From Arcobacteraceae bacterium (GTDB lineage Bacteria > Campylobacterota > Campylobacteria > Campylobacterales > Arcobacteraceae): 64,000 nucleotides of DNA. The notes beneath the pieces were generated by a model. The model saw nothing but the letters and a program-made list of their open reading frames with translations, was not told the DNA's origin and did not search any database. Of the stretch, positions 20,357 to 34,929 are shown in pieces. The translations under genes were made by a program, and so were the position numbers. The stretch is taken from NCBI GenBank assembly GCA_048268245.1, contig JBLWVX010000013.1, positions 1-64,000 of the forward strand. Direction: 5' to 3'. Numbering within the stretch: the stretch's first letter is position 1; each line of letters begins with the position of its first letter.

Positions 20357-20448
20357 TTGTATTATTTTTATGAAGACAATATAAAGTTTTGTGCTTCTTT
20401 GTATTGTCCTCATAAGAATAACTTTTTATAAAAATGAGAGGAAAGAGC

Positions 20449-21624
20449 GTGGAACTAACAAGAGCTGTTTGGGCTGAAATAAACTTAGATAATTTAGCAA
20501 ATAATATAAGTGAAGTAAGAAGAGTTACAAACCCTAACACAAAAATATCTGCTGTGATAAAAGCAGATGGTTATGGGCATGGAGCAGTTGCTATTGCTCA
20601 GACATTGCTTGAAAATGGAGCAGATAGATTTGCTGTTGCTACTTTAAGTGAAGCAATACAACTAAGAAAAGAGTTTAAAGAAACTCAAATCATGGTTTTG
20701 GGATATACACCTGAATACTTAGCCAAAGAAGTAATACAAAACAATATAATCCAAACGATATATTCACTAGAACAAGCCCAAGAGTTTTCAAAAGTAGCTA
20801 AACAACTAAATAAAGATATTGTTGTTCATATAAAAATAGATAGTGGTATGAACCGTCTTGGTATGCTTTGCAATGAAGATACAGTAAGCACAGTTTTACA
20901 GATAAGTAAGCTAGAAAACTTAGTGATTGAAGGGATTTATACACACTTCGCTGCAGCAGATGAACTAGATAAAACATATACAAAAACACAAGTAGAGAAG
21001 TTCAGTAAAATAGTAGAGCAAATAGAACAAAAAGGTTTATCTATACCTATAAAACATGTTTCAAATAGTGCTGCTATTATAGATATGCCTGAGTTTAACT
21101 TCGATATGGTTAGAGCAGGTATCATGCTATATGGACTATATCCATCACAAAGTGTAAATCATGAAAGAGTAAAGCTAAAAGAAGTGATGTGTCTAAAAGT
21201 AAAAATAGCCCAAGTAAAAGAAATCGAAGCAGGCTCAGGAATAAGCTACGGACTTACTCATAAATGTAAAGACAAAACAAAAATCGCAACTCTTCCAATA
21301 GGCTATGCAGATGGCTATACAAGAATGCTTTCAAATAAAGCAAAAGTTCTAGTAAAAAACAAAAAAATTCCAGTACTAGGAAATATCTGTATGGATCAGT
21401 GTATCATAGACGTAACAGGACTTGATGTAAAAATGGGCGATGAGGTGGTACTATATGGAGGAGATAACAAAGATGGAATCTCAATCGATAGTGTAGCAAA
21501 CCTTCTAAATACAATCAACTACGAAATCGTATGTATGGTAGATAAAAGAGTTCCAAGAGTGTACCTAAAAGACAATACACAAACAAACTACAAAGACTAT
21601 GTTCTATGTCTTTGTAAAGACTAA
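20449..21624 (+). CDS. alr: Alanine racemase
   Basis: AVIKADGYGHG (PLP lysine), IGYADGY, CMDQ, TINYE; GTG 20449 preferred (ATG 20434 possible). Confidence 0.93.
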   Translation: MELTRAVWAEINLDNLANNISEVRRVTNPNTKISAVIKADGYGHGAVAIAQTLLENGADRFAVATLSEAIQLRKEFKETQIMVLGYTPEYLAKEVIQNNIIQTIYSLEQAQEFSKVAKQLNKDIVVHIKIDSGMNRLGMLCNEDTVSTVLQISKLENLVIEGIYTHFAAADELDKTYTKTQVEKFSKIVEQIEQKGLSIPIKHVSNSAAIIDMPEFNFDMVRAGIMLYGLYPSQSVNHERVKLKEVMCLKVKIAQVKEIEAGSGISYGLTHKCKDKTKIATLPIGYADGYTRMLSNKAKVLVKNKKIPVLGNICMDQCIIDVTGLDVKMGDEVVLYGGDNKDGISIDSVANLLNTINYEIVCMVDKRVPRVYLKDNTQTNYKDYVLCLCKD

Positions 21625-21649
21625 CTAAAACAAATCTCAATAAACCTTA

Positions 21650-21678
21650 ATAAAACAAAGAATAACTCTTTGTTTTAT
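21650..21678 (+). terminator. Terminator after alr
   Basis: ataaaacaaaga-ataac-tctttgttttat. Confidence 0.65.
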
Positions 21679-22000
21679 CTCTTCAACTACTACATATAAA
21701 ATAATAATCAAGTATATATTTATAAATAAGTGTTATAAAAACTTACTTTTTAATCCAAAATCAACTAAATAAATAATACTATAATAGTAAAATTATTTTA
21801 GGTTTGAAGACGTTTGATATATAAACTTTTTTTCATATCTTTTACAAATCAATAAAAAATATAAATCCATTTTTCTTTTTAAAATTATCGCTAAATACAT
21901 TAATTTAACTATAAGCTTAGAAAAGATAGTGGATGTAATTTCTCTTATGTGGAAGTATCAAAATCGCGAATTTTATTGCAGATAAATTAAAAGGATAATT

Positions 22001-23788
22001 ATGCAAATTAATATAGAAGATATTTGGTTGAATAAAAGTGTTCAAATATACAAAAAGATAAATGATATACCTAAAAATTCTATAGAAAGATTATTTATTG
22101 ATTTAGGAAAGAACAGAATTGGAAATTATGTAAAAAATGAGATAAGATTAGAATACTCACCTAATATTTACTACTCTATATTATCATTTAAATTTGAAGA
22201 AGAACCAAGTTTTCTTCAAAGAACTGATGAAAAAGAAATAAAATATTCATATCTTTTTATTTTAGAAGCTAATGAGTACTTTTTTGTAAATAAGAAACAT
22301 ATAAGTAGCATAGAAAAACATTTTACTGATTATATAGAATCATTTGATTATGAAAAGTTTTCTCATTTTAAAGCTGATAAAAATCCAAAATATGAAAAAG
22401 TTTCTATTGGTAATATGTCAATTTCTGATGCCGTAATTAGATCAAGAAGTTATGAAGCTAGTAATTTAGAAGGTACTTTGCCATTATCTTCTGCTAGTAG
22501 GTCTATAGCTAGGAGTTTAAGATTAAATGATGCTGGTAAAATGTTTAGTATTACTCCAAATACATCTCGAATAAGTGAAAGAGATACAAAAATTAGTATA
22601 AATAATTACATTTCATGGTGTTTACAAATTGCAAATGAAATTTCATTAAATACACAAAGAAGTGATTTTATTAATGGTTTTGCAAAACCAATTTCACTAG
22701 AAGATATATTATTAATCTCAAAGCCAATTGGTATTTTATTTCATTTTGAAATTATAGAAGAACTAATAGAACTAGAAAACTTAGAATTATATATTGATAA
22801 TGGCACTTCAAATCGTCTTGCTTTAAATTCTGACGAATTAAAAATGTTGTTTTTAATTTTGAGAAAAACATTTAATATCAGAAAAAAAGAGTTAAATAGT
22901 AATGAATATGAAGTTTATAACAAACGAATAACTGTAGCTGAATTTAAGACTAATAAAAAATCAATTTCTTTCAAGGAAAGTATGTTAGATAATATTTTTT
23001 TTGATGATAGCTCTGATAATAGTTTAAAAGAATTTATTAGTTCAAATAAATATTATTCAATAGTTTTTGATAATCCAAAATATTCTTTTATTGGTAAATA
23101 TGCTTTTTTAGATAATAGTCTATTAACTAAAACAAATATCAATAAAATTTTATCTATTTGTATAATTAATCATGGAATTGCAAATATAAATAGTGAAAAA
23201 GAGAAACCTCACTTATCTAGTTTTACTAGATTCCCAGAAGAATCATTATTTTATAAAGTGGAAGAATATTTTAATACAGGTGTATTAATTTGCGATGATA
23301 TGAATGATGAATGGGCAGATCATATCAATATAACTGATAATGAAATATCTTTAATTCATTCAAAGTTTACAACTAAAGATTCTTATGGTGCTAGTAAAAT
23401 GCATGATGTAGTTTCACAAGCATTAAAGAATATAGCTAGAGTACATGCAACTATAGAAGAATATCGAAATAAATATGATACTAAATGGCAAAATACTTAT
23501 GAATCAACTCAAATAAGTCGTTTGAGAAAAGATGGAAATACAGTTAATGTCAGATTTCAAGATATTGAAGAAGCTTTAATTAAAATACATTCTAAACCAA
23601 ATGCAAGGAAGAAAATATATTTAGCAACTCCTTTTTTTAGTAAAGATACGCTTGAAATAGAATTAAACAAATTTATTTCAAATTCACAGACTAATGTACA
23701 TTACTTTCAATTTATTTGGCTGTTAAGTACTTTTATTAGTTCTTGCCAAGATTATGGTGTGAATCCATATATTTTATGTAAGGATTAA
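22001..23788 (+). CDS. Uncharacterised 595-aa protein with putative PD-(D/E)xK-like nuclease C-terminus; first gene of the Hachiman operon
   Basis: AAGGA RBS; ICDDMNDEWADHI...LIHSK...VVSQALKN; 3 nt from the hamA start. Confidence 0.7.
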   Translation: MQINIEDIWLNKSVQIYKKINDIPKNSIERLFIDLGKNRIGNYVKNEIRLEYSPNIYYSILSFKFEEEPSFLQRTDEKEIKYSYLFILEANEYFFVNKKHISSIEKHFTDYIESFDYEKFSHFKADKNPKYEKVSIGNMSISDAVIRSRSYEASNLEGTLPLSSASRSIARSLRLNDAGKMFSITPNTSRISERDTKISINNYISWCLQIANEISLNTQRSDFINGFAKPISLEDILLISKPIGILFHFEIIEELIELENLELYIDNGTSNRLALNSDELKMLFLILRKTFNIRKKELNSNEYEVYNKRITVAEFKTNKKSISFKESMLDNIFFDDSSDNSLKEFISSNKYYSIVFDNPKYSFIGKYAFLDNSLLTKTNINKILSICIINHGIANINSEKEKPHLSSFTRFPEESLFYKVEEYFNTGVLICDDMNDEWADHINITDNEISLIHSKFTTKDSYGASKMHDVVSQALKNIARVHATIEEYRNKYDTKWQNTYESTQISRLRKDGNTVNVRFQDIEEALIKIHSKPNARKKIYLATPFFSKDTLEIELNKFISNSQTNVHYFQFIWLLSTFISSCQDYGVNPYILCKD

Positions 23789-23791
23789 TAG

Positions 23792-24676
23792 ATGTTAGAA
23801 ACAGATATAAAAAAAGATTTTTTAGATTTATTTTATCATGTTATTGAAGACTATGAATTAGAGAATGCAAATAAACTTAATCTTTTCTCATTGGAAATAA
23901 AAAATACTATATTTAACATTGATTCACTTTTAGATGAATTGGATGATAATATAATACCCTTTATGTTGTCTAGAAAACAATTAAGAGATATGGATGATAG
24001 GTTTGGTGGTAAAAAATCAAGACAAGCAAGAACTAAATTTAGACAATTTACTTCAAATGAGGGTGAACTAGGAGAAGTATTATTATACTGTTTTTTAGAA
24101 TCTCACTTGAATGCTCCTAAAATATTATCTAAGTATGAATTAAAAACATCAACTAATGATTATATAAAAGGTGCTGATGGTGTTCACTTACTGAAAACAG
24201 ATGATTCAACATTTCAATTAGTTTTTGGCGAATCTAAATTATATGGAAATTTAAAAAAAGGTATCTATGATGCTTTTTCATCAATTCTTACTTTTTTAAA
24301 AAATAAAAATGATACATATGAAGAAGAATTAATAAATTCTAATTTACAAAAAGAGGTTTTTGATGATGATTCATATAACGTTATAAAAAGTATTTTATTA
24401 CCAAAAAGACGAATGTCAAGTAACATTGATTTAGATAATTCCTTTGCCATTTTCTTGGGATTTGATTATAAACTTGAAGAAAATTTAAAAGGTAAAGATG
24501 CACGAGAAAAAATAAAAAAAGATATAGAAAGTATAGTTATGGATAATATTGACTCATTTAACTTTCAATTAAAAAAGAATGACTTGAAAGGTTATGAATT
24601 CTACATTTACACAATGCCTATTAATAATATTGAAAGTACGAGAAAAAGAATGATTGAAAGGCTATCAAATGGATAG
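23792..24676 (+). CDS. hamA: Hachiman HamA (DUF1837) nuclease
   Basis: GELGEVLLY...APKILSKYELKT...GADGVH...LVFGESK, upstream of an SF2 helicase. Confidence 0.88.
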   Translation: MLETDIKKDFLDLFYHVIEDYELENANKLNLFSLEIKNTIFNIDSLLDELDDNIIPFMLSRKQLRDMDDRFGGKKSRQARTKFRQFTSNEGELGEVLLYCFLESHLNAPKILSKYELKTSTNDYIKGADGVHLLKTDDSTFQLVFGESKLYGNLKKGIYDAFSSILTFLKNKNDTYEEELINSNLQKEVFDDDSYNVIKSILLPKRRMSSNIDLDNSFAIFLGFDYKLEENLKGKDAREKIKKDIESIVMDNIDSFNFQLKKNDLKGYEFYIYTMPINNIESTRKRMIERLSNG

Positions 24677-27251
24677 TAATATTTATAATAAGTTAGCTAA
24701 TGATGCTATAAAAGATGGTTATTTAAATGAACTTTTATCAAAATTAGTAGAAATAAACCATCAACAAATTTTTAAGGAGTTAGAAACTTCTAGTTTATCA
24801 AATAATGAGTTTATTCATTTATTAAGATTTGCAGATATTATGTCTTGTTCTGATAAATCAGAATTTAGGAACTATTCTTTACAGATAATTAGTTTAATGT
24901 ATGAAAAATATAAATATAATGAAAAATATAAAATAAGTGCATTAGCAATATTTTCAAAATTGGGTTCTTTTTTTTCAATTGACAAATTTTTAATAACTGA
25001 TTCAGAGGTTAAATTACCAATAGAAAGAAGTATTGAAGCAAATATGAAAATGAATATTCAAATTGTACCTTTTAATAACTCTTATATTTTTACAGATAAT
25101 CAATTTGAATTATATAAAAGAATTAGTGCTTCAAAAGCTTTTAGCTTTTCAGCTCCTACTTCAATGGGGAAGTCTTTTATACTAAAATCATTTTTATATA
25201 AAGTAATGCAAAATAATCCACCAGAGAATATTATAATAATGGTTCCTACTCGAGCATTAATAAGTCAATTTTTTATAGATATAAAAAGTGAACTTCAAGA
25301 TATGATTGAATTAAAAAATTATAAAATTCTAACAAACTCAAATATAGTTCAAAATGAAGAAATTGAACATAAATATATATTAGTTTTAACGCCAGAAAGA
25401 ATTTTAAGTTATATATCTTCTTTAGATAATCCCCCTATAGGGTTTTTATTTGTAGATGAAGCCCATAAAATAGCATCTCAAAAAGATTCAAGAAGTGTTA
25501 CTTCTTATTTAGCAATAGAAAAACTATTAAAGAAAAATCCAAATTTAAATTTATATTTTTCTTCACCAAATGTATCAAACCCAAATGTATTTTTAGATAT
25601 GTATGGAAAGGGTAATAATCAAAGTTATAGGCAAATAAAAGAAACATCAGTTAACCAAAATTTATTTTATGTTGATTTAATAGAAAAATATTCTATCTTT
25701 TTTGTAAATAATACACGTAGTGACAAACAGCGATTAAAAGTATTTGATAAAGTAAATTGTTTAAATAATTTTTTATTTGATTTACTTCTAAGTGATAATA
25801 ATCTTATTTATTGTAATGGGAAAGCAAAAACAATAGAGAAAGCCAAAAGTTTTTATGAGTTTCTATCAGTACATAAAAAGTATAAACTTGATTTATCAGA
25901 AGAACTTAGAAAAAAGCTAGATATTTCAATTTCTCAGATTAAATCTCATATTCATAAAGATTATTATTTAGTTGAGTTTTTAGAATATGGAATTGCATAT
26001 CATTTTGGTAATATTCCTCAAATTGTCAGAAATATTGTTGAAGAGTTATTTAGGAAAGGGGTAATTAAATACTTATTTTGTACTTCTACACTTTTAGAAG
26101 GTGTTAATTTACCTGCAAAAAATGTGTTAATTCTTAATAATAAGAAAAATAGATCTATCTTTGAACCTATAGATTTTTGGAACTTGGCTGGTAGGGCAGG
26201 AAGGTTTGGGATGGAACTATCTGGAAATATATTTTGTATTAGAGAAGAGGAAAATAACTGGGAAAAAAAAGATGAACTCTTAATAAAAAATGATATTGAA
26301 ATAAAACCTACTGTAAATAAAAAAATTGACTCTAATATTCAGAAAATTGAAAAAGTTTTACTTGAAAAGGATATATCTGGAACAGAAGAAGAGAAATATA
26401 TTCTTAAATATATTGCTAATATGATTTGTATAGATACTTTTGATTTAGAAAATAGTTATAGAAGTCCTATTATAGAACAATTAATTAAAAATAATAAAGA
26501 TAGAATTATAGAATATGCAAAAAGTAAGATTAATAAGGTTGATATTCCAAATATAATACTTCAATCTAACCAATCTATAGATATATCAATACAAAATAAG
26601 GTTTTTAAAATTTTAAAATTAAGAAACAGTCAAGGAAAAATAATTAAACTTCCTAATGTAATTACATATGAAACTGCAAAAATTATATTAAAAGATATGT
26701 TTAATCTCTATGATTGGGACATAAATGAAAAGTTAAAATTTAAAAGTATGGACTATTTTGCTCTTCTTGTTACTCAATGGGTTAATGGTACAAGTTTAAA
26801 TCAAATTATTAATGATTCTATTAGTTGGCATATTGATAATCAAAAAGAGATTTATATCAATAATAAAAGTGATGGTTTATTTAATAAAAATAATTTAATG
26901 CATGTTAATGAATTAATCAATCAGATTATAGATAATATTGAAAGAAAACTAAGATTTGTTTTTGAAAAATATTTTACACATTATAACTCAATTTTGATTG
27001 CATTATATGGTGAAAAAAATGCAGGTGTAAATTGGGCACAATATTTAGAATACGGAACACAGAATAATGTTGTAATTATATTACAAAATCTTGGTCTTTC
27101 AAGATACACTGCTAATTTTATATATAAAAATTATAAACAAGCTTTAGTTTTAGATAATGATGGAAACTTTCAAAAAGTTAATAAAGAATATTTATTAAAT
27201 AATATTAATAAAATTTCAATTGAATTTGAAGAGATACAGAATATTTTATAG
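24669..27251 (+). CDS. hamB: Hachiman HamB SF2 (Ski2-like) helicase
   Basis: SAPTSMGKS, DEAH, TSTLLEGVNLPA, NLAGRAGR; ATG 24669 overlaps the hamA stop. Confidence 0.88.
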   Translation: MDSNIYNKLANDAIKDGYLNELLSKLVEINHQQIFKELETSSLSNNEFIHLLRFADIMSCSDKSEFRNYSLQIISLMYEKYKYNEKYKISALAIFSKLGSFFSIDKFLITDSEVKLPIERSIEANMKMNIQIVPFNNSYIFTDNQFELYKRISASKAFSFSAPTSMGKSFILKSFLYKVMQNNPPENIIIMVPTRALISQFFIDIKSELQDMIELKNYKILTNSNIVQNEEIEHKYILVLTPERILSYISSLDNPPIGFLFVDEAHKIASQKDSRSVTSYLAIEKLLKKNPNLNLYFSSPNVSNPNVFLDMYGKGNNQSYRQIKETSVNQNLFYVDLIEKYSIFFVNNTRSDKQRLKVFDKVNCLNNFLFDLLLSDNNLIYCNGKAKTIEKAKSFYEFLSVHKKYKLDLSEELRKKLDISISQIKSHIHKDYYLVEFLEYGIAYHFGNIPQIVRNIVEELFRKGVIKYLFCTSTLLEGVNLPAKNVLILNNKKNRSIFEPIDFWNLAGRAGRFGMELSGNIFCIREEENNWEKKDELLIKNDIEIKPTVNKKIDSNIQKIEKVLLEKDISGTEEEKYILKYIANMICIDTFDLENSYRSPIIEQLIKNNKDRIIEYAKSKINKVDIPNIILQSNQSIDISIQNKVFKILKLRNSQGKIIKLPNVITYETAKIILKDMFNLYDWDINEKLKFKSMDYFALLVTQWVNGTSLNQIINDSISWHIDNQKEIYINNKSDGLFNKNNLMHVNELINQIIDNIERKLRFVFEKYFTHYNSILIALYGEKNAGVNWAQYLEYGTQNNVVIILQNLGLSRYTANFIYKNYKQALVLDNDGNFQKVNKEYLLNNINKISIEFEEIQNIL

Positions 27252-28009
27252 ATTTTAAGTTAAAAGATAGTGAAAACTATGCGATTTTACATGATCTAAG
27301 ACTTGAGATAGATGGTCTAACTGCACAAATAGACCATCTACTTATAAACAAAGCTATAGGTATAATACTAGTTGAAACTAAAAATACAAAAGCAGAAGTT
27401 ACTATAAATGACGATGGAACTATGTTATATAAATACCCAAATAACAAGACTTATAATCAAGCAAATCCACTAGAACAATCAAAAAGACATGAGCTAGTAG
27501 TAGAAAAGATATTAGACAAATACAATATGAAATCAAATATCACATCTTATGTAGTATTTTTACCAAATGTAATTATCAAAAATAAAACTCTTCCAAAAAA
27601 CTTTTTAAGATCAGATACTTTTTATGATTCTATTTATACAGAGTTTACACATAGTCCAAGGAAGGTATTAACAGCTGCTGCAAAACTATTTATAAATAAA
27701 ATGCCATCAACAAAAGAGATTAGAAATATAGGGAATATTTTAGTAGCAGAAAACAAACCTATAAATATTGACTACGATGCGAAATATAAAATTAAAAAAG
27801 AAATAGAAAAGAAAGTAGAAGAAGTTATCGTAGAAAAAGCTATTTACCATGAAAAAAATATGAAAAAATTCAGAGATATTAAAAGCTCAAAAAAATACAT
27901 GGGAAATGAAATGCTAAGTTTTATCTGTATTAGCTGTGGAAAAGAACAGAGAAAAGGCTTGAAAACTTTTAGTACAAAAGAGGTTTTTTGTAATCATTTC
28001 AAAGTGTAA
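27242..28009 (+). pseudogene. 5'-truncated NERD-domain nuclease gene
   Basis: Open frame YFIDFKLKDSENYAILHDLR...QIDHLLI...ETKN...NPLEQ with no start codon before ATG 27422. Confidence 0.8.
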
Positions 28010-28103
28010 GATTTTTTTGTAAAAATATTTTTTAGTGTTATTATATGTTAACGTTTTACCAACATCAGAAAAACGATAAAAAAATCTATTAAAAGGTTTT
28101 ATT

Positions 28104-28502
28104 TTGGAACAAGAGTATAACAGTTGAAATAATATTAAAAAAGATATAGCAAAAGAAAATATATTTGTAGGATTTAAAAATAGAGATATATTTTATATGA
28201 ATATGGGAAAGAATATTGGCTTTGAGCAAGATGGCAAAGGTGAAAACTTTGTTCGTCCAGTTGTTATTGTAAAAGGATTTAACAAAAATATGTTTTTTGG
28301 TATTCCTTTATCTACTAAGATAAAAGAGGGTAAGTTTTATTATAGATTTACATTTTGTAAAAAGGATAAAGAAGTAGAAAATATTGCGTTATTATCTCAG
28401 ATGAGACTTTTTAGTACAAAAAGACTTTTAAATAAAATTGGTATGATGAAGATAAATGATTTTGAAAATATGAAAAATAAGTTTAAAGAGTTGATAGATT
28501 AA
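28104..28502 (+). pseudogene. PemK/MazF-family toxin with an in-frame TGA at codon 8
   Basis: AAGG RBS, TTG 28104, TGA 28125-28127, same frame continues GKNIGFEQDGKG..RPVVIV..GIPLST..LLSQMR. Confidence 0.8.
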
Positions 28503-28608
28503 CCCCATCAAAAAGATGGGTCGTCCCGTAGGAATTTAGGATTAAATTATAACACAAATTATAAATAAATGCAATAACAAGCTAATTGTATTAAAACAAT
28601 CCATAATA

Positions 28609-28637
28609 TTGACTTTGTAGTATAAAGGTACTACAAT
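28609..28637 (+). promoter_or_regulatory. Sigma70-type promoter with an overlapping 8-bp inverted-repeat operator
   Basis: TTGACT-N17-TACAAT; TTGTAGTA-N6-TACTACAA at 28615-28636. Confidence 0.75.
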
Positions 28638-28662
28638 TTATAAAAATAAAGAGGATTGAATT

Positions 28663-28719
28663 ATGTCTTTAGATTCAGAAGTAAGAGCAAGAGTAGAAAA
28701 TAAACTAAAAATAAAGTAA
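28663..28719 (+). pseudogene. Truncated RelB/DinJ-like antitoxin (18 aa)
   Basis: GAGGA RBS; MSLDSEVRARVENKLK resembles the RHH N-terminus of RelB/DinJ. Confidence 0.65.
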
Positions 28720-28722
28720 TTT

Positions 28723-29190
28723 ATGACACTCATAAACAAAACAACAGCCTACATCATAACAATACCACTATTTACTATCTGGTTACTTTTTTGCTTCCTC
28801 ATTTCTCTTATTGGTTCACTTCTTTATAAAAAAAGAGTTCTTATTGATTTGGATAGGGTGAAGAAAAGAGATACTATTTGTAGTGTCTTAAATAGTAAAA
28901 AATACCTAAGTGATGAAGAATATGAGTTTGAGACTGTTGAGGTGGCTTCACTTTATGATGAGCTTACTTTTAGGGGATATTTGTTTGTTTTGGCTCCTGT
29001 GATATTTTTACTAAAGCATTTTAGTTTTGCTGATGATTTTGTTTTTTATCTTGTAAAAAAGTGGATGAAGATACACAAATATCAAAGACAACACAAGAAA
29101 AAAGCAAAAAGTTTCTTCTCTGCTCTTATGTCTTTGTGTGTTTTACTTGCCTTTTTTGTAGGGCAGGTTTTGTATAGAGTAAAACCTTAA
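28723..29190 (+). CDS. Hypothetical membrane protein
   Basis: 155-aa ORF with three hydrophobic segments. Confidence 0.55.
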   Translation: MTLINKTTAYIITIPLFTIWLLFCFLISLIGSLLYKKRVLIDLDRVKKRDTICSVLNSKKYLSDEEYEFETVEVASLYDELTFRGYLFVLAPVIFLLKHFSFADDFVFYLVKKWMKIHKYQRQHKKKAKSFFSALMSLCVLLAFFVGQVLYRVKP

Positions 29191-29199
29191 AACCCTTTT

Positions 29200-31668
29200 T
29201 TATTCACCAAATAAAACATTCTCTTTTTGATGTATGATTTTAGATGTAAAGAAGTTTACAACTAAGATAGTAAGTATTGGTATTAGTAAGAAATAAAGCA
29301 CTAGTATATCAGCTCTAAAATCCCAATACGACTCAAAAAGTAAACTACTTATAAAATATGAACCAACACTTCCAAGTATGATTCCTATACTACTAGCACT
29401 AAGTGCTATCAGTCCAAACTCCAATAAAAATGAGTTTTTAATAGTCTTATTTTTTATACCTATCATCTTTAGTCGTAGGATGTTATTTTTTTGCAAGTTC
29501 ATTTGATACTGTATGATGATAAAACTCATTAAAAGCCCAATAGTTACAGAGTATAAACTCATCTTTTCAGTGATAGCTGTCACATCATCAACCACTGTGG
29601 CAAATGACTCAAATAAACTTTTCACATCTATTACCGTAAGACTAGGGAACTTATCTGTTAATGTAAGTAGCATTTTTGAAGTATCATACTCTCCTGTAGA
29701 GATAGTTGCTAGCATAGTTTTTGGAGCGTCATTTATAGCTCCTTCTTGCAGTAGTAAGAAGAAGTTTGGTGTAAACTCTGTCCATTTTACTGATCTTATG
29801 TTTACTACTTTAGCAACTAGTTCAAGTCCTAGTACATCAAATACTACTGTATCTCCTAGGCTTATACCTCTTCTTTTTGCATATCTTTTTTCAACACTCA
29901 TTTCAATAGGTTTTGAGTAATCAGCAGAGTCATAAACTCCACTAAATTCTCTACCTTCAAGTATTTGTTCACTTGGTTTTAAATCACTTCTGTATGATAG
30001 GTTTACTGTAGAGTTTCTTGCATTTTCACCTTCTTGTGATTGTTCTTTTCCATTTATTTTAAGAACTCTTGCTCTTATCATTGGAGCAATATTTTCAAGT
30101 TTTGCTCCCATGTTTTCAACTTGTTTACTTATGTCATTTAGTTGCTCTTCTTTTGCATCTACTACAAAAAATCTAGGTCTTTCTTGTACACTTTTAGTAA
30201 GTACATTTGATAAAGAACTTCCAACTTGTGGTATCAAACTAAAGAATGCAGTACATAAAAGTATCGCACTAAATAGTGTAAGTGAGGTTCTTTTTTGTCT
30301 TGTGATATTTTTTAGAGCCAGCGATAAAGCTAGGTTATCAAGATGACCTGAAAAATCAAATCTTTTTAAGATAAAAGAGCCTATACCAAAAAGTAGGGCG
30401 ATGATTACTAAAACACTTAAAGCAAAGAAAAATCCTATATTCTTAGCAGGTGTTACAAAGTGTGAAAGCACAAGTAAGAAAACTACAAAGGGAGTGAAGC
30501 TTAAGATAACTCGTGATAGTCTTCTTTTCTGTCTTTGAACTAGTGGTAGTATCAAAGGAAGCCCAATAGATAAACTTAAAGCAAAAAGTACCACAGCAGA
30601 CTTCACAAAAAACATATAATCAAGACTAAAATCAAAACTAAAGTCAATATACTTTTGAATAAGTGGTCCTATAAATTGCGCTGATAAACTTATAAAAGCA
30701 AACACCAAAACAGTTGCTATTGATATAAGTACAAAAAGATGAAGCAAATAAGTCATAATAAGATTTTTCTTACTAACACCTATATCATTTAAAACTGTGA
30801 TGTCTTGCTGATGTTTTTTCAAAAAGCCTGAATATAGATATATAAGTCCCACAAGTCCCAAGAAAAAGGAAATCAAAGATACAAGTGATAAGAAGTTTGT
30901 CAAGAAACTTAACACTGCTATAAGTCTATCTCGTCCATCATTTGGTGATAGAACTCTAAGACTTCTATCAAGTTTGGTTTCTATTTGCTCTTCTAACTCT
31001 TCTAGTTTGTCATTACTTAGGTTTTGCTCAAAAAGATAGTTTAGTTTATATCTAGCTGTTGAACCAAACTTTAGAAGTTCACTTCTTTCAAGACCTTTGG
31101 GACTTAAATATACTTTTGGCATAAAACCACTAAAGCTTATGTTTTTAAGGCTATCTTCTTTTATAACTTTTACTATAGTGTAGTTTTTGCTTCCTATCTT
31201 AAGATTACTTCCAAGAGTAAGTCCTAATAAATCTAAAACCTCTTGATATACCCAAACTTCATTTTCTTTTGGTAGGGCTTGCCCTTTTGGATAAGTAGTG
31301 TTATCTTTGAAAACTAAACCACCATAGTATGGAAAACCTTTGTTTATTTGTACAAGTTCCATAAGTCTAGCTCTTTTAGAAGAAGCTACCATACTTACTG
31401 TTGATATTCCCTCATCAAAGCTTTTGATTTGAGGAAGTAGGTTTTTTACTTGCTCTTTTTGGGCATCACTTATTGGAAATCTAGAGTTTACTACTAAATC
31501 AGCTCCAAGTAAACTTTTTGCTTTTGTATCAAGTGAAGTATCGATACTTCCTTTAAAAAACTGTAAGTAAGATAGTGAAGCAATAGCTAAACAAAAGTTT
31601 AGTATAAAAATAAGACTAAAGGATTTTGATCTTTTAAGGGCTTTTGAAACTAGTTCAACTACTAACAT
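29200..31668 (-). CDS. FtsX/YbbP-like ABC transporter permease
   Basis: LLGADLVV, FPYYG, two FtsX-like TM clusters, RSVKW..F.PNFF. Confidence 0.85.
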   Translation of the reverse strand: MLVVELVSKALKRSKSFSLIFILNFCLAIASLSYLQFFKGSIDTSLDTKAKSLLGADLVVNSRFPISDAQKEQVKNLLPQIKSFDEGISTVSMVASSKRARLMELVQINKGFPYYGGLVFKDNTTYPKGQALPKENEVWVYQEVLDLLGLTLGSNLKIGSKNYTIVKVIKEDSLKNISFSGFMPKVYLSPKGLERSELLKFGSTARYKLNYLFEQNLSNDKLEELEEQIETKLDRSLRVLSPNDGRDRLIAVLSFLTNFLSLVSLISFFLGLVGLIYLYSGFLKKHQQDITVLNDIGVSKKNLIMTYLLHLFVLISIATVLVFAFISLSAQFIGPLIQKYIDFSFDFSLDYMFFVKSAVVLFALSLSIGLPLILPLVQRQKRRLSRVILSFTPFVVFLLVLSHFVTPAKNIGFFFALSVLVIIALLFGIGSFILKRFDFSGHLDNLALSLALKNITRQKRTSLTLFSAILLCTAFFSLIPQVGSSLSNVLTKSVQERPRFFVVDAKEEQLNDISKQVENMGAKLENIAPMIRARVLKINGKEQSQEGENARNSTVNLSYRSDLKPSEQILEGREFSGVYDSADYSKPIEMSVEKRYAKRRGISLGDTVVFDVLGLELVAKVVNIRSVKWTEFTPNFFLLLQEGAINDAPKTMLATISTGEYDTSKMLLTLTDKFPSLTVIDVKSLFESFATVVDDVTAITEKMSLYSVTIGLLMSFIIIQYQMNLQKNNILRLKMIGIKNKTIKNSFLLEFGLIALSASSIGIILGSVGSYFISSLLFESYWDFRADILVLYFLLIPILTILVVNFFTSKIIHQKENVLFGE

Positions 31669-32324
31669 TTCTCTAAGTTTCCATGATTTAGTGAATAAGT
31701 CTGCTCACATCTAGCAGCCACATCTTTTGAGTGAGTTACTAAAATCAAAGTTGTATTGTTTTTTTTGATTAGCTCAAAAAGTTTATCCATCACAGCTATT
31801 CCTGTTTCTTCATCTAAGTTTCCACTTGGTTCATCTGCTAAGATAATCTTTGGATTATGTATCAAAGCCCTTGCTATTGCAACTCTTTGTTTCTCCCCAC
31901 CACTAAGTTCTGAGGGTAAGTGATCAAATCTATGTCCTAAGCCTACACTCTCCAAAAGTTCAATCGCTTTTTCTTTTGGATTTTTTATACCACATACTTT
32001 TGCAGGAAGCATTACATTTTCTAGTGCATTTAAATATGAAACTAGATGAAAGTTTTGAAAAACAAAGCCTATATTTGAAGCTCTAAAGTCGTTTATTTGC
32101 TCTTCTTTCATATCTTTATATGAAATACCATCAAGTAAAATATCTCCTGATGTTGGTTTGATAATACCTGAAATTAAAGAAAGTAGGGTTGATTTCCCAC
32201 TTCCTGATTTTCCCATGATAGCTACTCTTGCAGCTTCTTTTACATGAAAATTTAAATCTTCATATATTTTTACTTCAGTTGAGCCTTGAGAGTATGATTT
32301 TTTAAGTGATTTTATTTGTAGCAT
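31662..32324 (-). CDS. YbbA/LolD-like ABC ATP-binding protein
   Basis: GKSGSGKS, LSGGEKQRVAIARA, ADEPSGNLD. Confidence 0.9.
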   Translation of the reverse strand: MLQIKSLKKSYSQGSTEVKIYEDLNFHVKEAARVAIMGKSGSGKSTLLSLISGIIKPTSGDILLDGISYKDMKEEQINDFRASNIGFVFQNFHLVSYLNALENVMLPAKVCGIKNPKEKAIELLESVGLGHRFDHLPSELSGGEKQRVAIARALIHNPKIILADEPSGNLDEETGIAVMDKLFELIKKNNTTLILVTHSKDVAARCEQTYSLNHGNLEKC

Positions 32325-32932
32325 TATAACTCTTCCTTTAAAAAGTTGAAAACTTCATTTGCTATGATTTTATGACCTTTTGGGTTTGGATGTATACCAT
32401 CAGCTTGATTTAGTTCTTGTACTCCTGCCACATCTTTTAGTAAAAAGGGCATAAATTTAAGATTGTATTTTTCTTTGATTTCAAGATACATTTTCTCAAA
32501 TTTCCTTGAGTAATCAGGTCCATAGTTTGGTGGGATTAGCATACCTGCTAATAGTACTTTTGCCTTTGATTTTTGAGCATGAGTTATTATCTCTTCTAGA
32601 TTTTTTTGGCTTTGAGTAAGGTTTAAACCTCTAAGCCCATCATTTGCCCCAAGAGCAATAAATACAATATCAGGTTTTCTTTTTAGATACCATTTTAGTC
32701 TAGCAAAGGCATCACTTGTTGTTGAGCCTGAAACTCCACCATTTATAATTTTTATATTTTTATTTAGTTCTTTTTTTGCTAATTTTTGTACTAAGTTTGG
32801 ATAGGCTTGATTTTTTGATACCCCTAAGCCCTCAGTTAGTGAATCTCCTAAAAATAGGATAGTTTTAGTATTTGAATTTGCTGTTAAAATCTGTAGTGTT
32901 ATTATACATAGGATAAAAATTATCTTTTTCAT
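32324..32932 (-). CDS. tesA: SGNH/GDSL arylesterase / acyl-CoA thioesterase I
   Basis: GDSLT, LGANDGLRG, PPNYG, DGIHP. Confidence 0.88.
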   Translation of the reverse strand: MKKIIFILCIITLQILTANSNTKTILFLGDSLTEGLGVSKNQAYPNLVQKLAKKELNKNIKIINGGVSGSTTSDAFARLKWYLKRKPDIVFIALGANDGLRGLNLTQSQKNLEEIITHAQKSKAKVLLAGMLIPPNYGPDYSRKFEKMYLEIKEKYNLKFMPFLLKDVAGVQELNQADGIHPNPKGHKIIANEVFNFLKEEL

Positions 32933-32979
32933 GTTGATATGTTATCAAAAGTTTATTAACCAATTATAAAGAGATAATG

Positions 32980-34929
32980 TTAGTTGAAATCAAAAAGTGA
33001 TTCTTGTTTTTGTTTAAATGGCTCTATTAATTTATAAGCCTCTTTTATATAAAAGTCAAAGTCTAAATACTCATATGAAAAATCTTCTATTTTATTACAA
33101 AGTTCTACTTTATATCCTACATTTATTCCTATTACTCTTTGCTCACTTGTATTGTTTAGAGGAGGAAGAATCTTTTTTAAAGGAAGACCATTTTTACTGA
33201 TAAAATATCTTATGGTATTTGGAAGTTTCACATAGGTTTTCTCAAATGAATAAACTTTTTCAAGTACCAAATCTATGTGTTTGGTAGCTTTTGTATTTAG
33301 TAAAAAATCATATTTATTTCTATGATTATATATAAACTCTTCTATTGATACACCTTTTAAAAGATGTGCTTCTACTGCTTTTTGAACTACTAAGCATGAG
33401 TGGTTTTGATTCCAAGCCAGTTCATATTTATATGCACCTATTTTCTTTGCTTCACCGTTTTCTTTTAGGGCTATGTAGTTATTTACATCTCTAATCCATA
33501 GTTTTTTGTATATGGCTTCTTCTAGTTCTAGACCTGTAAACTCTTGCCAGTTTTTAGAAATCTCTTCGTATTTAGCTTTATCTTTTTTATCTATTTTAAA
33601 AGTAAGACCATCTGTATTTGCTTGAATAAGTGAAACAGAGTCTATACTCATAAGCTTTTCTGCTAACATACACAGCATTAGCTGTCCATTTAGAGTGATG
33701 CTAAGAGTCATTTTATAGTCATAAAAAGGACTAAATTGATTATTTGTGTCTCCATAAGCTGAGTTTAGTGCTAGTTTTAGCATCTTGTTTTGAGAAGTTC
33801 CTTTTTTATATGAAAACCTCATATCTCTTATTTCTTTGTATATATCTACAAACTCAACTCCTAGATGTTTAGGATAAAGTCCATTTTGTATCACAATAGA
33901 TGGATAATAGCTTGCAACATCCACATCTATGATAAGATACTCATCATTTTGGTCATAAAACTTCCCCTCAACACTTCCATGAAGTCCACCAGTTCCAAAG
34001 TAAAAAGAAAAGTCTTTATAGTTTAGATGTAAAGATGAAGCTTCATTTTTAGCATTTAGAGTACAGAATGAAGATAGTTCTTCTAAGTCTTCTTTTTTTA
34101 TATTTGAAAAAACTTCATTCATAGAGTTTGTATATTGTTTTTTTAGATATTTCAAAAGAGCTTGAAACTCAATACTCTCAAAACTTATGTAATCAAAAAT
34201 AATCTCACCAAAGTTCAAAAAGTTTCTTACCGTTTGTCTTGGCTTTCCATTTATATAACATATATCTTTGCCAAGTTTTTCTTCAAGATTTCGTATAAAG
34301 TATCTTTTCCCTATTTTAGTATCACTATAGTTAAGCATATTCTCATTATATTTTGAGCTCAAATTTTCTCTAAACTCTATGGCTTCTAGAGAGTGATTGA
34401 AAAAAAGTAGGGTTGCTTCAACATCATGTTTGTTGTATTTAATTAGATTATCAAATTCATCTGTCTTTAGATTCTCTCCAATAGTAAAGTTTAAATCTTC
34501 AATAGAATCCATACACATATTTACTTCTAAGACTTTTAGACTAACCCTTGTTGCTTTATAATCAAAGTTGTGTATTTTCATAAGGTCAAGTTGCTTTAGG
34601 TTTATAGAGTTTTTATCTTCTTTATAGATAGTGTTGTTTTTGATTAAATCATCTGCAAAAAGAAATGTTTTATAAATAAGCTCTTTTATTTCATATTTTT
34701 TAGCATTTTTATAAATATATTGAAGGACTGCATAATCAAAGTTTAGGTTATTGTATCCCACTAGTATCTTATTTGTTTTGCTAAGCCATTGTAGGGTTTT
34801 GAGAAGTTTTGCTAAATCATTTTGTCTTGAACTTAATTCAAAAACTCTAATCTCTTTTGTTTGAGCATTTTGCATAACACATGTAAAGATATTTGGAAAG
34901 GTTTCTAGGTCATATATGTAGTATTTCAT
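32980..34929 (-). CDS. Phage-type family B DNA polymerase with 3'-5' exonuclease domain
   Basis: ExoI YDLETF, ExoII YNNLNFD, ExoIII YNKHDV; polymerase motifs DVASYYP, KLALNSAYG, NTDG. Confidence 0.88.
   Translation of the reverse strand: MKYYIYDLETFPNIFTCVMQNAQTKEIRVFELSSRQNDLAKLLKTLQWLSKTNKILVGYNNLNFDYAVLQYIYKNAKKYEIKELIYKTFLFADDLIKNNTIYKEDKNSINLKQLDLMKIHNFDYKATRVSLKVLEVNMCMDSIEDLNFTIGENLKTDEFDNLIKYNKHDVEATLLFFNHSLEAIEFRENLSSKYNENMLNYSDTKIGKRYFIRNLEEKLGKDICYINGKPRQTVRNFLNFGEIIFDYISFESIEFQALLKYLKKQYTNSMNEVFSNIKKEDLEELSSFCTLNAKNEASSLHLNYKDFSFYFGTGGLHGSVEGKFYDQNDEYLIIDVDVASYYPSIVIQNGLYPKHLGVEFVDIYKEIRDMRFSYKKGTSQNKMLKLALNSAYGDTNNQFSPFYDYKMTLSITLNGQLMLCMLAEKLMSIDSVSLIQANTDGLTFKIDKKDKAKYEEISKNWQEFTGLELEEAIYKKLWIRDVNNYIALKENGEAKKIGAYKYELAWNQNHSCLVVQKAVEAHLLKGVSIEEFIYNHRNKYDFLLNTKATKHIDLVLEKVYSFEKTYVKLPNTIRYFISKNGLPLKKILPPLNNTSEQRVIGINVGYKVELCNKIEDFSYEYLDFDFYIKEAYKLIEPFKQKQESLFDFN

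Follow-up and report, generated by a model that had tools for sequence, protein, structure and literature searches.

Type I Hachiman is a two-gene system that pairs the nuclease HamA, a DUF1837 protein, with the helicase HamB. Type II is defined by an added HamC (DUF3223; PMC8565338), and in Streptococcus another system can stand upstream of hamAB, in the pezAT-hamAB and abiJ-hamAB operons called ‘extended Hachiman’; there, Hachiman alone defends and Pez lowers Hachiman expression (PMC13064477). Here, we analyse a locus in which a gene of another kind precedes hamAB. It lies in a stretch of 64,000 nucleotides (nt) from an Arcobacteraceae bacterium (GCA_048268245.1, contig JBLWVX010000013.1, positions 1-64,000 of the forward strand), referred to as a whole as the window, in which three co-directional, tightly coupled open reading frames (ORFs) occupy positions 22001-27251 of the plus strand: gene 1, encoding 595 amino acids (aa), followed by hamA and hamB (Table 1). 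An earlier, sequence-only reading of this DNA had proposed that gene 1 was either a third subunit of a new Hachiman subtype or an independent defence gene co-transcribed with it. Our analysis favours the latter: gene 1, a member of the PDC-S71 family (S71 hereafter), is probably a separate cassette that is stacked with a type I Hachiman at a hotspot at the end of sbcC and likely co-transcribed with it, and not a Hachiman subunit.

Over its whole length, gene 1 matches the PADLOC model PDLC05077 (PDC-S71) with an E of 2.6e-175 and 582.6 bits, its residues 4-594 aligning to model positions 3-588 of 589, and a whole-genome PADLOC search gave the same result. What had been read as uncharacterised and new is thus a full-length member of an already named system: judged by its sequence, gene 1 belongs to a catalogued candidate defence family, yet one that is experimentally unstudied. 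The PADLOC library text describes its contents as ‘known and candidate’ systems, and in the literature that we searched we found neither the name PDC-S71 nor any experimental work on the family, and no function or structure for it in print. The ‘S’ in the name we take to mean single-gene. Gene 1 agrees with the family in length and carries the same invariant C-terminal motif as 44 aligned homologues. It differs in its setting: the family stands by itself in most of the loci that we examined, whereas in this locus and in two from Aliarcobacter hamAB follows it immediately. Other libraries returned no Pfam match at E <= 0.1 and no NCBIfam or PHROG family. The Pfam searches likewise gave no DUF1837 signature, no helix-turn-helix, antitoxin or NTPase domain and, in agreement with the earlier statement that gene 1 is not HamC, no DUF3223 match at E <= 1.

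A word-indexed search yielded 143 homologues of gene 1, every named one ‘hypothetical’, whose identity ranges from 80% in Aliarcobacter down to about 40% in Vibrio, Aeromonas, Pseudomonas, Yersinia and Bacteroidota. When 1.84 billion representatives were searched with the family profile, 1119 matches fell at E <= 1e-3 (representatives counted at 50% clustering) and 382 at E <= 1e-30; among the 150 matches listed, most were about 580-620 aa long and aligned over their full length, alongside some shorter fragments and a single longer form. Across a 45-member alignment, the C-terminal core residues C431, D432, D433, E437, W438, D440, H453, K455, H468, Q473, K476 and N477 are invariant. The family is nearly absent from phage collections, with no match in the GenBank phage collection and a single locus in 2.9 million viral contigs, and the S71 profile found just two lectins, at E about 1.5, among the sequences of solved structures. 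A protein atlas linked gene 1 to DUF6119/TIGR04141 with feature scores of 0.88 for the whole protein and 0.79 for its C-terminal part, values that the tool counts as leads; gene 1 had no hidden Markov model (HMM) match to PF19614 or TIGR04141, and neither 301 Campylobacterota genomes nor 14 control genomes yielded a member of that family. Other S71 proteins were noted as well. One protein in the representative library (P0128, 1018 aa) carries an N-terminal Peptidase_S41 domain before a full S71 module (residues 433-1017) and could be either a true fusion or an artefact of gene calling. In addition, a second, divergent S71 lineage is present in Campylobacterota (L085, L086 and L040, from genomes G409, G458 and G260; 28-30% identity to the window's protein, no Ham nearby); the gene after S71 in G409 is a type II restriction-enzyme-like ORF.

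The two genes that follow are Hachiman, as the sequence-only reading had held from the DUF1837 and helicase signatures. The 294-aa protein carries the GELGE, GADGVH and GESK motifs reported for it, and its residues G91, G94, E95, G127, D129, E147 and K149 are invariant among 11 HamA sequences, with D129, E147 and K149 supplying the D...ExK expected of a Hachiman DUF1837 protein. In the third gene, the PADLOC HamB1 match is accompanied by Pfam DEAD (4.9e-15) and Helicase_C (4.7e-11) matches. By these matches, genes 2 and 3 are a typical, complete type I pair of HamA nuclease and HamB helicase. The coupling of the three genes was also found again as described: an AAGGA ribosome-binding site lies 7 nt upstream of the gene 1 ATG, the gene 1 stop codon (TAA, 23786-23788) is separated by 3 bases (TAG) from the hamA ATG, a second AAGGA falls within the last codons of gene 1 ahead of hamA, and the hamB ATG overlaps the hamA stop codon (24674-24676) so that the two genes share 8 nt. 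A consensus scan, which is weak evidence of its kind, placed no terminator-like site between 21400 and 29144 and a sole one at 29145-29168. Two metatranscriptome runs contributed 0 and 1 reads to the stretch, which is uninformative on expression either way, and two DNA runs gave short, low-depth contigs only. The three genes are packed closely enough for joint transcription, with S71 probably still a separate cassette.

If gene 1 were a part of Hachiman, its homologues should keep company with hamAB. We examined 80 other S71 loci (36 from species representatives, 40 from metagenomes and 4 further Campylobacterota loci), in 7 of which less than 1 kb of downstream DNA makes the absence of hamAB uninformative. 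hamAB adjoins S71 in two of the 80, L002 and L003, both from Aliarcobacter. Searches by tblastn, with the HamA and HamB of the window and later with three HamA/HamB pairs, found it in these two only, and so did PADLOC scans of 157 flanking ORFs of the species-representative loci and an HMM built from 11 Arcobacteraceae HamAs and run on all six-frame ORFs of the S71 loci; none of the 40 metagenome loci and none of the 4 further Campylobacterota loci had hamAB. Elsewhere, the next ORF of at least 80 aa after S71 mostly lies at least 75 nt away or on the opposite strand, with a handful closer or overlapping. The neighbours of S71 in other genomes, as called by PADLOC, include AbiD, PDC-S15, bSEFIR, AriAB, type I restriction-modification specificity subunits, a type IV DinG and an SspH-like gene, and the window's own island holds, besides S71, Hachiman, a NERD remnant and a MazF-like gene, as expected of a defence island.

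At the level of genomes, S71 is sporadic, being present in 3 of 401 genomes of the order and 6 of 184 of the family. Within the Arcobacteraceae, three genomes carry both S71 and HamA, three S71 alone, ten HamA alone and 168 neither; co-occurrence is above expectation (one-sided Fisher p 0.005), with the genomes related and hence non-independent, and 10 of the 13 HamA-bearing genomes lack S71. Across the 80 other loci, S71 relatives show no enrichment beside hamAB and, with close HamAB relatives occurring in genomes that lack S71, the proposal of a third subunit or new subtype is not supported. S71 differs from type I Hachiman proteins in having no DUF1837 signature and a profile unlike that of HamA. 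In the presence of an extra gene or module in the hamAB operon, the locus resembles the type II and extended forms (PMC8565338 and PMC13064477); it differs from them in that S71 is not DUF3223, PezAT or AbiJ, much exceeds HamC in size and is part of a family normally found apart from Hachiman.

At first sight, the three linked loci look like one S71 lineage paired repeatedly with different Hachimans. In a quick maximum-likelihood tree (IQ-TREE), a single clade of 11 rows, with a support of 100 in the approximate likelihood ratio test SH-aLRT, unites the S71 proteins of the window, L002 and L003 with P0004, P0006-P0008, P0010-P0012 and P0015. Across the three loci, identity is 52-61% for S71, 24-26% for HamA and about 32% for HamB, and the best PADLOC HamA model is different for each HamA. 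All three members of this subclade with known context sit 3-8 nt upstream of hamA, in front of three distinct HamAB lineages. This would suit a reading in which the Aliarcobacter-type S71 is a Hachiman partner that has no motor and uses HamB, placing the HamA and S71 nucleases under one helicase sensor; if so, the recurrence of one S71 lineage before three HamAB lineages would reflect selection for the partnership.

The flanks of the three loci argue against this. In L002 and L003, S71 starts 12 nt past sbcC, which is intact in L003 and reduced to an sbcD/sbcC deletion remnant in L002. In the window, the approximately 100 nt directly 5' of S71 are an sbcC 3' remnant (blastn 73-76% over 90-107 nt against L002 and L003, E 1.9e-10), and a second genome of the same genus, G326, has a clearer sbcC C-terminal pseudogene at the matching place. 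The flanks of G326 match the window at 20383-21987 and 28591-34314, and between them lie 6.6 kb of different genes: a radical SAM gene, two others, a DUF2779 gene and one more. A further genome, G436, carries a third gene set at the site. These comparisons indicate that, at the window's site, sbcC was lost while the defence hotspot at its end persisted. We also noted that the sbcC 3' remnant (locus L109 in G326) lies downstream of alr in the window's genus, and that three genomes of this genus show three different gene sets at the sbcC-end site.

The occupants of the hotspot are exchanged. Genome G460 carries a HamA and HamB 72% and 65% identical to those of the window and has no S71 genome-wide; between sbcC and its hamA lie a dCTP deaminase (PDLC02373, 4.6e-110), an AAA_28 gene and a radical-SAM gene. 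Likewise, G530 has a HamA and HamB 76% and 75% identical to those of L003 without S71, and its slot is filled by KwaA/KwaB (Kiwa). Kiwa and the dCTP deaminase, the alternatives to S71 in this slot, we take to be independent immune systems. Since these cassettes also end close to hamA, at 46 nt in G460 and 23 nt in G530, the tight spacing is a habit of the island and no mark of partnership. Moreover, the shared sbcC-end site and the exchanged cassettes mean that the three S71-hamAB loci represent one homologous hotspot, and so do not count as independent events. In light of these close relatives of two linked HamAB pairs (65-76% identical), in which Kiwa or a dCTP deaminase takes the place of S71, S71 is best regarded as an independent stacked cassette: in the window, S71 would occupy the first slot after the sbcC 3' end and a complete type I Hachiman the next. 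Together with the rarity of S71 beside hamAB, these relatives make the second of the two earlier proposals, that of an independent defence gene presumably co-transcribed with hamAB, the one that fits best.

Another gene recurs at these sites. In four Arcobacteraceae loci (L002:15269-19456, L003:8400-9884, L101:3707-5197 and L102:761-2239), hamAB has a DUF2779 (Cas4-like) gene of 492-497 aa on its downstream side. The gene adjoins hamAB directly in L002, L003 and G460; in G530, about 1.3 kb with two small ORFs separates them. Next to it in both L002 and L003 comes a superfamily 1 (SF1) helicase of 901-927 aa, with DUF2726 in L002 (PADLOC MkoA/MkoC-like). The DUF2779 gene is found without hamAB in G326, and this query found none in the window's genome. 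The DUF2779 gene and the SF1 helicase may form a further recurring cassette or a pair tied to Hachiman.

The arrangement seen here matches, by analogy, the extended Hachiman operons of Streptococcus, which raises a second alternative, namely that S71 mainly tunes Hachiman and does not itself defend, by setting its expression or by buffering HamAB toxicity, like PezAT upstream of hamAB. An upstream operon module that represses Hachiman expression is described there (PMC13064477), and the predicted fold of S71 is of a DNA-binding type. However, a 595-aa protein whose nuclease-like motif is invariant, and which is on its own at the great majority of its loci, is not what would be expected of a dedicated Hachiman regulator, and the Pfam results mentioned above show neither domain typical of such a role. 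We consider a tuning function very unlikely.

Turning to the possibility of a shared motor, we found S71 modules joined to helicases. The module follows an N-terminal ResIII/DEAD helicase in a 1021-aa protein of Frigoribacterium (L037) and in a 1023-aa protein encoded on a Bradyrhizobium plasmid (WP_248889879.1, annotated as ‘DEAD/DEAH box helicase family protein’), and a Rhizobium copy of the helicase-S71 fusion, truncated by an insertion sequence, is also present. The Frigoribacterium fusion aligns with all of S71 beyond about residue 70 (hhalign probability 98.4%, E 4.6e-15; PADLOC PDC-S71 5.9e-34), and the Bradyrhizobium fusion has a PADLOC PDC-S71 match of 3.3e-41. As in gene 1, their C-terminal approximately 500 residues form the S71 module with the same C..D...E..AD / HxK / H..V.QALK motif; they differ in that the helicase replaces the first approximately 70 residues of S71, while the window's protein has no NTPase domain of its own. 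A CapP-like protease gene (L037:6426-6842, PADLOC capP 2.5e-20) lies near the Frigoribacterium fusion, which is a defence-type neighbourhood.

Because these fusions indicate that the S71 module can work with a superfamily 2 (SF2) motor, they keep the S71-HamB reading alive as a minority view, and the restriction-endonuclease-like fold that the S71 C-terminal domain shares with HamA is in keeping with it. Set against this are the exchange of S71 for other systems before related HamAB pairs, the common origin of the three linked sites, and the remaining S71 loci, which have no Ham at all and, in the great majority of the family, no helicase nearby. Furthermore, the helicase part of the fusion resembles PbeA/ResIII, its likeness to HamB being weak (21% over 168 aa, E 2e-5), and comparison of the S71 and HamA profiles gave an hhalign probability of 0.2%, so that no relation is seen between them at the level of sequence. 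We therefore regard the Hachiman-partner reading as unlikely, although it is the strongest of the alternatives, and a functional S71-Hachiman partnership as doubtful. Its specific form, in which Aliarcobacter-type S71 proteins are helicase-less versions of the approximately 1020-aa fusions that recruit HamB as their motor, giving a two-nuclease Hachiman, seems slightly more doubtful again. If it were true, one DNA-damage-sensing helicase would license both HamA and an RdgC-like clamp-nuclease.

To ask what S71 might do by itself, we modelled the protein with AlphaFold2 from a 45-sequence alignment, which yielded a confident model (pLDDT 85.3, pTM 0.74). In the model, the N-terminal domain has an RdgC-type fold, RdgC being the best fold match. 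The dimers of RdgC are rings that bind DNA non-specifically, and its fold is shared by the phage-exclusion protein RexA (PMC11077077). RexA was absent from our S71 fold-search lists, and the link to it runs through that paper's comparison with RdgC only. Structural alignments of S71 with RdgC show 6-8% identity, and gene 1 has no Pfam or NCBIfam match to RdgC, so that the likeness is one of predicted fold and not of sequence family. S71 further differs from RdgC and RexA in that neither carries a nuclease domain, and ring formation by S71 is a proposal.

The C-terminal domain is predicted to have a restriction-endonuclease-like fold, with the alpha-beta-beta-beta-alpha-beta core. Here, the sequence-only reading had suspected a variant PD-(D/E)xK active site. 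The elements that it named, ICDDMNDEWADHI-x8-LIHSK and VVSQALKN, are present, with a second spacer of 14 residues in place of the 12 given. In the model, D440 immediately precedes strand 2 and H453-S-K455 closes strand 3, as expected of a PD-(D/E)xK site, which bears out the fold and the placement of the D and HSK residues; the canonical middle acid, however, is replaced by a histidine. D440, H453 and K455 are invariant in the 45 sequences, and in a 46-sequence C-terminal alignment that includes one helicase-fused relative the D and K remain invariant and the H nearly so. A fold search with this domain returned HamA as one of many nucleases scoring equally.

On this model, S71 may combine a DNA-binding clamp with a variant nuclease of the restriction type that is directed against a phage-associated DNA state. 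The RdgC-like domain would bind DNA, possibly as a ring-forming dimer like RdgC, and the C-terminal domain would cut once a phage-specific DNA state had been recognised, at a site proposed to comprise the invariant D440...H453-x-K455 together with E421, D432/D433, E437 and Q473/K476. At about 590 residues, the S71 protein is self-contained, and it stands by itself in the defence islands of many phyla. The same RdgC likeness, with the position of S71 directly after sbcC in L002 and L003, could also point to a role in recombination or repair, as a nuclease with RdgC-like DNA binding that is tied to sbcCD and has no part in immunity. The sporadic distribution and variable island speak against such a role, as does the fact that the neighbours of S71 in other phyla are defence genes and not sbcCD, and that the family is listed in the PADLOC library; of the readings considered, we give this one the least credence.

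Within the island, the ORF that abuts hamB matches Pfam NERD over profile positions 12-110 of 111. Its reading frame is open from the hamB stop codon onward, with no in-frame ATG, GTG or TTG before 27422. It looks 5'-truncated at the junction with the hamAB cassette.

Table 1. Features of the S71-hamAB island and its left edge, in window coordinates.
Feature	Position	Strand	Basis or remark
Gene 1, PDC-S71 family protein, 595 aa (P0001)	22001..23788	+	ATG start; PADLOC PDLC05077
hamA, DUF1837 nuclease, 294 aa	23792..24676	+	Pfam HamA 1.8e-55; PADLOC HamA1 PDLC00156 3.5e-100
hamB, SF2 helicase, 860 aa from ATG 24669 (865 aa from TTG 24654)	24669..27251	+	PADLOC HamB1 PDLC00176 1.8e-290
Predicted RdgC-like N-terminal domain of gene 1 (residues 9-220)	22025..22660	+	
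Predicted restriction-endonuclease-like (PD-(D/E)xK fold) C-terminal domain of gene 1 (residues 400-595)	23198..23785	+	
Putative active-site segment of gene 1, D440...H453-S-K455	23318..23365	+	conservation and model position
Degenerate sbcC 3'-end remnant, left edge of the defence hotspot	21878..21986 (approximate)	+	blastn
Variable island, other gene sets in same-genus genomes	21988..28590	.	comparison with G326 and G436
NERD-domain ORF, apparently 5'-truncated, abutting hamB	27251..28009	+	Pfam NERD 1.1e-17
MazF/PemK-like toxin gene within the island	28197..28502	+	Pfam PemK_toxin 1.1e-7; PHROG MazF-like growth inhibitor 7.9e-18

Taken together, these comparisons correct the call of a new Hachiman subtype and provide a first structural hypothesis for PDC-S71, as an RdgC/RexA-like domain followed by a restriction-endonuclease-like domain with an unusual D...HxK, to which the helicase-fused relatives can be added. 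Whether S71 and Hachiman are stacked or cooperating is directly testable with few constructs. For the Arcobacteraceae, the sbcC-end hotspot appears to be a natural exchange experiment, in which S71, Kiwa or a dCTP deaminase is placed before interchangeable Hachiman lineages.

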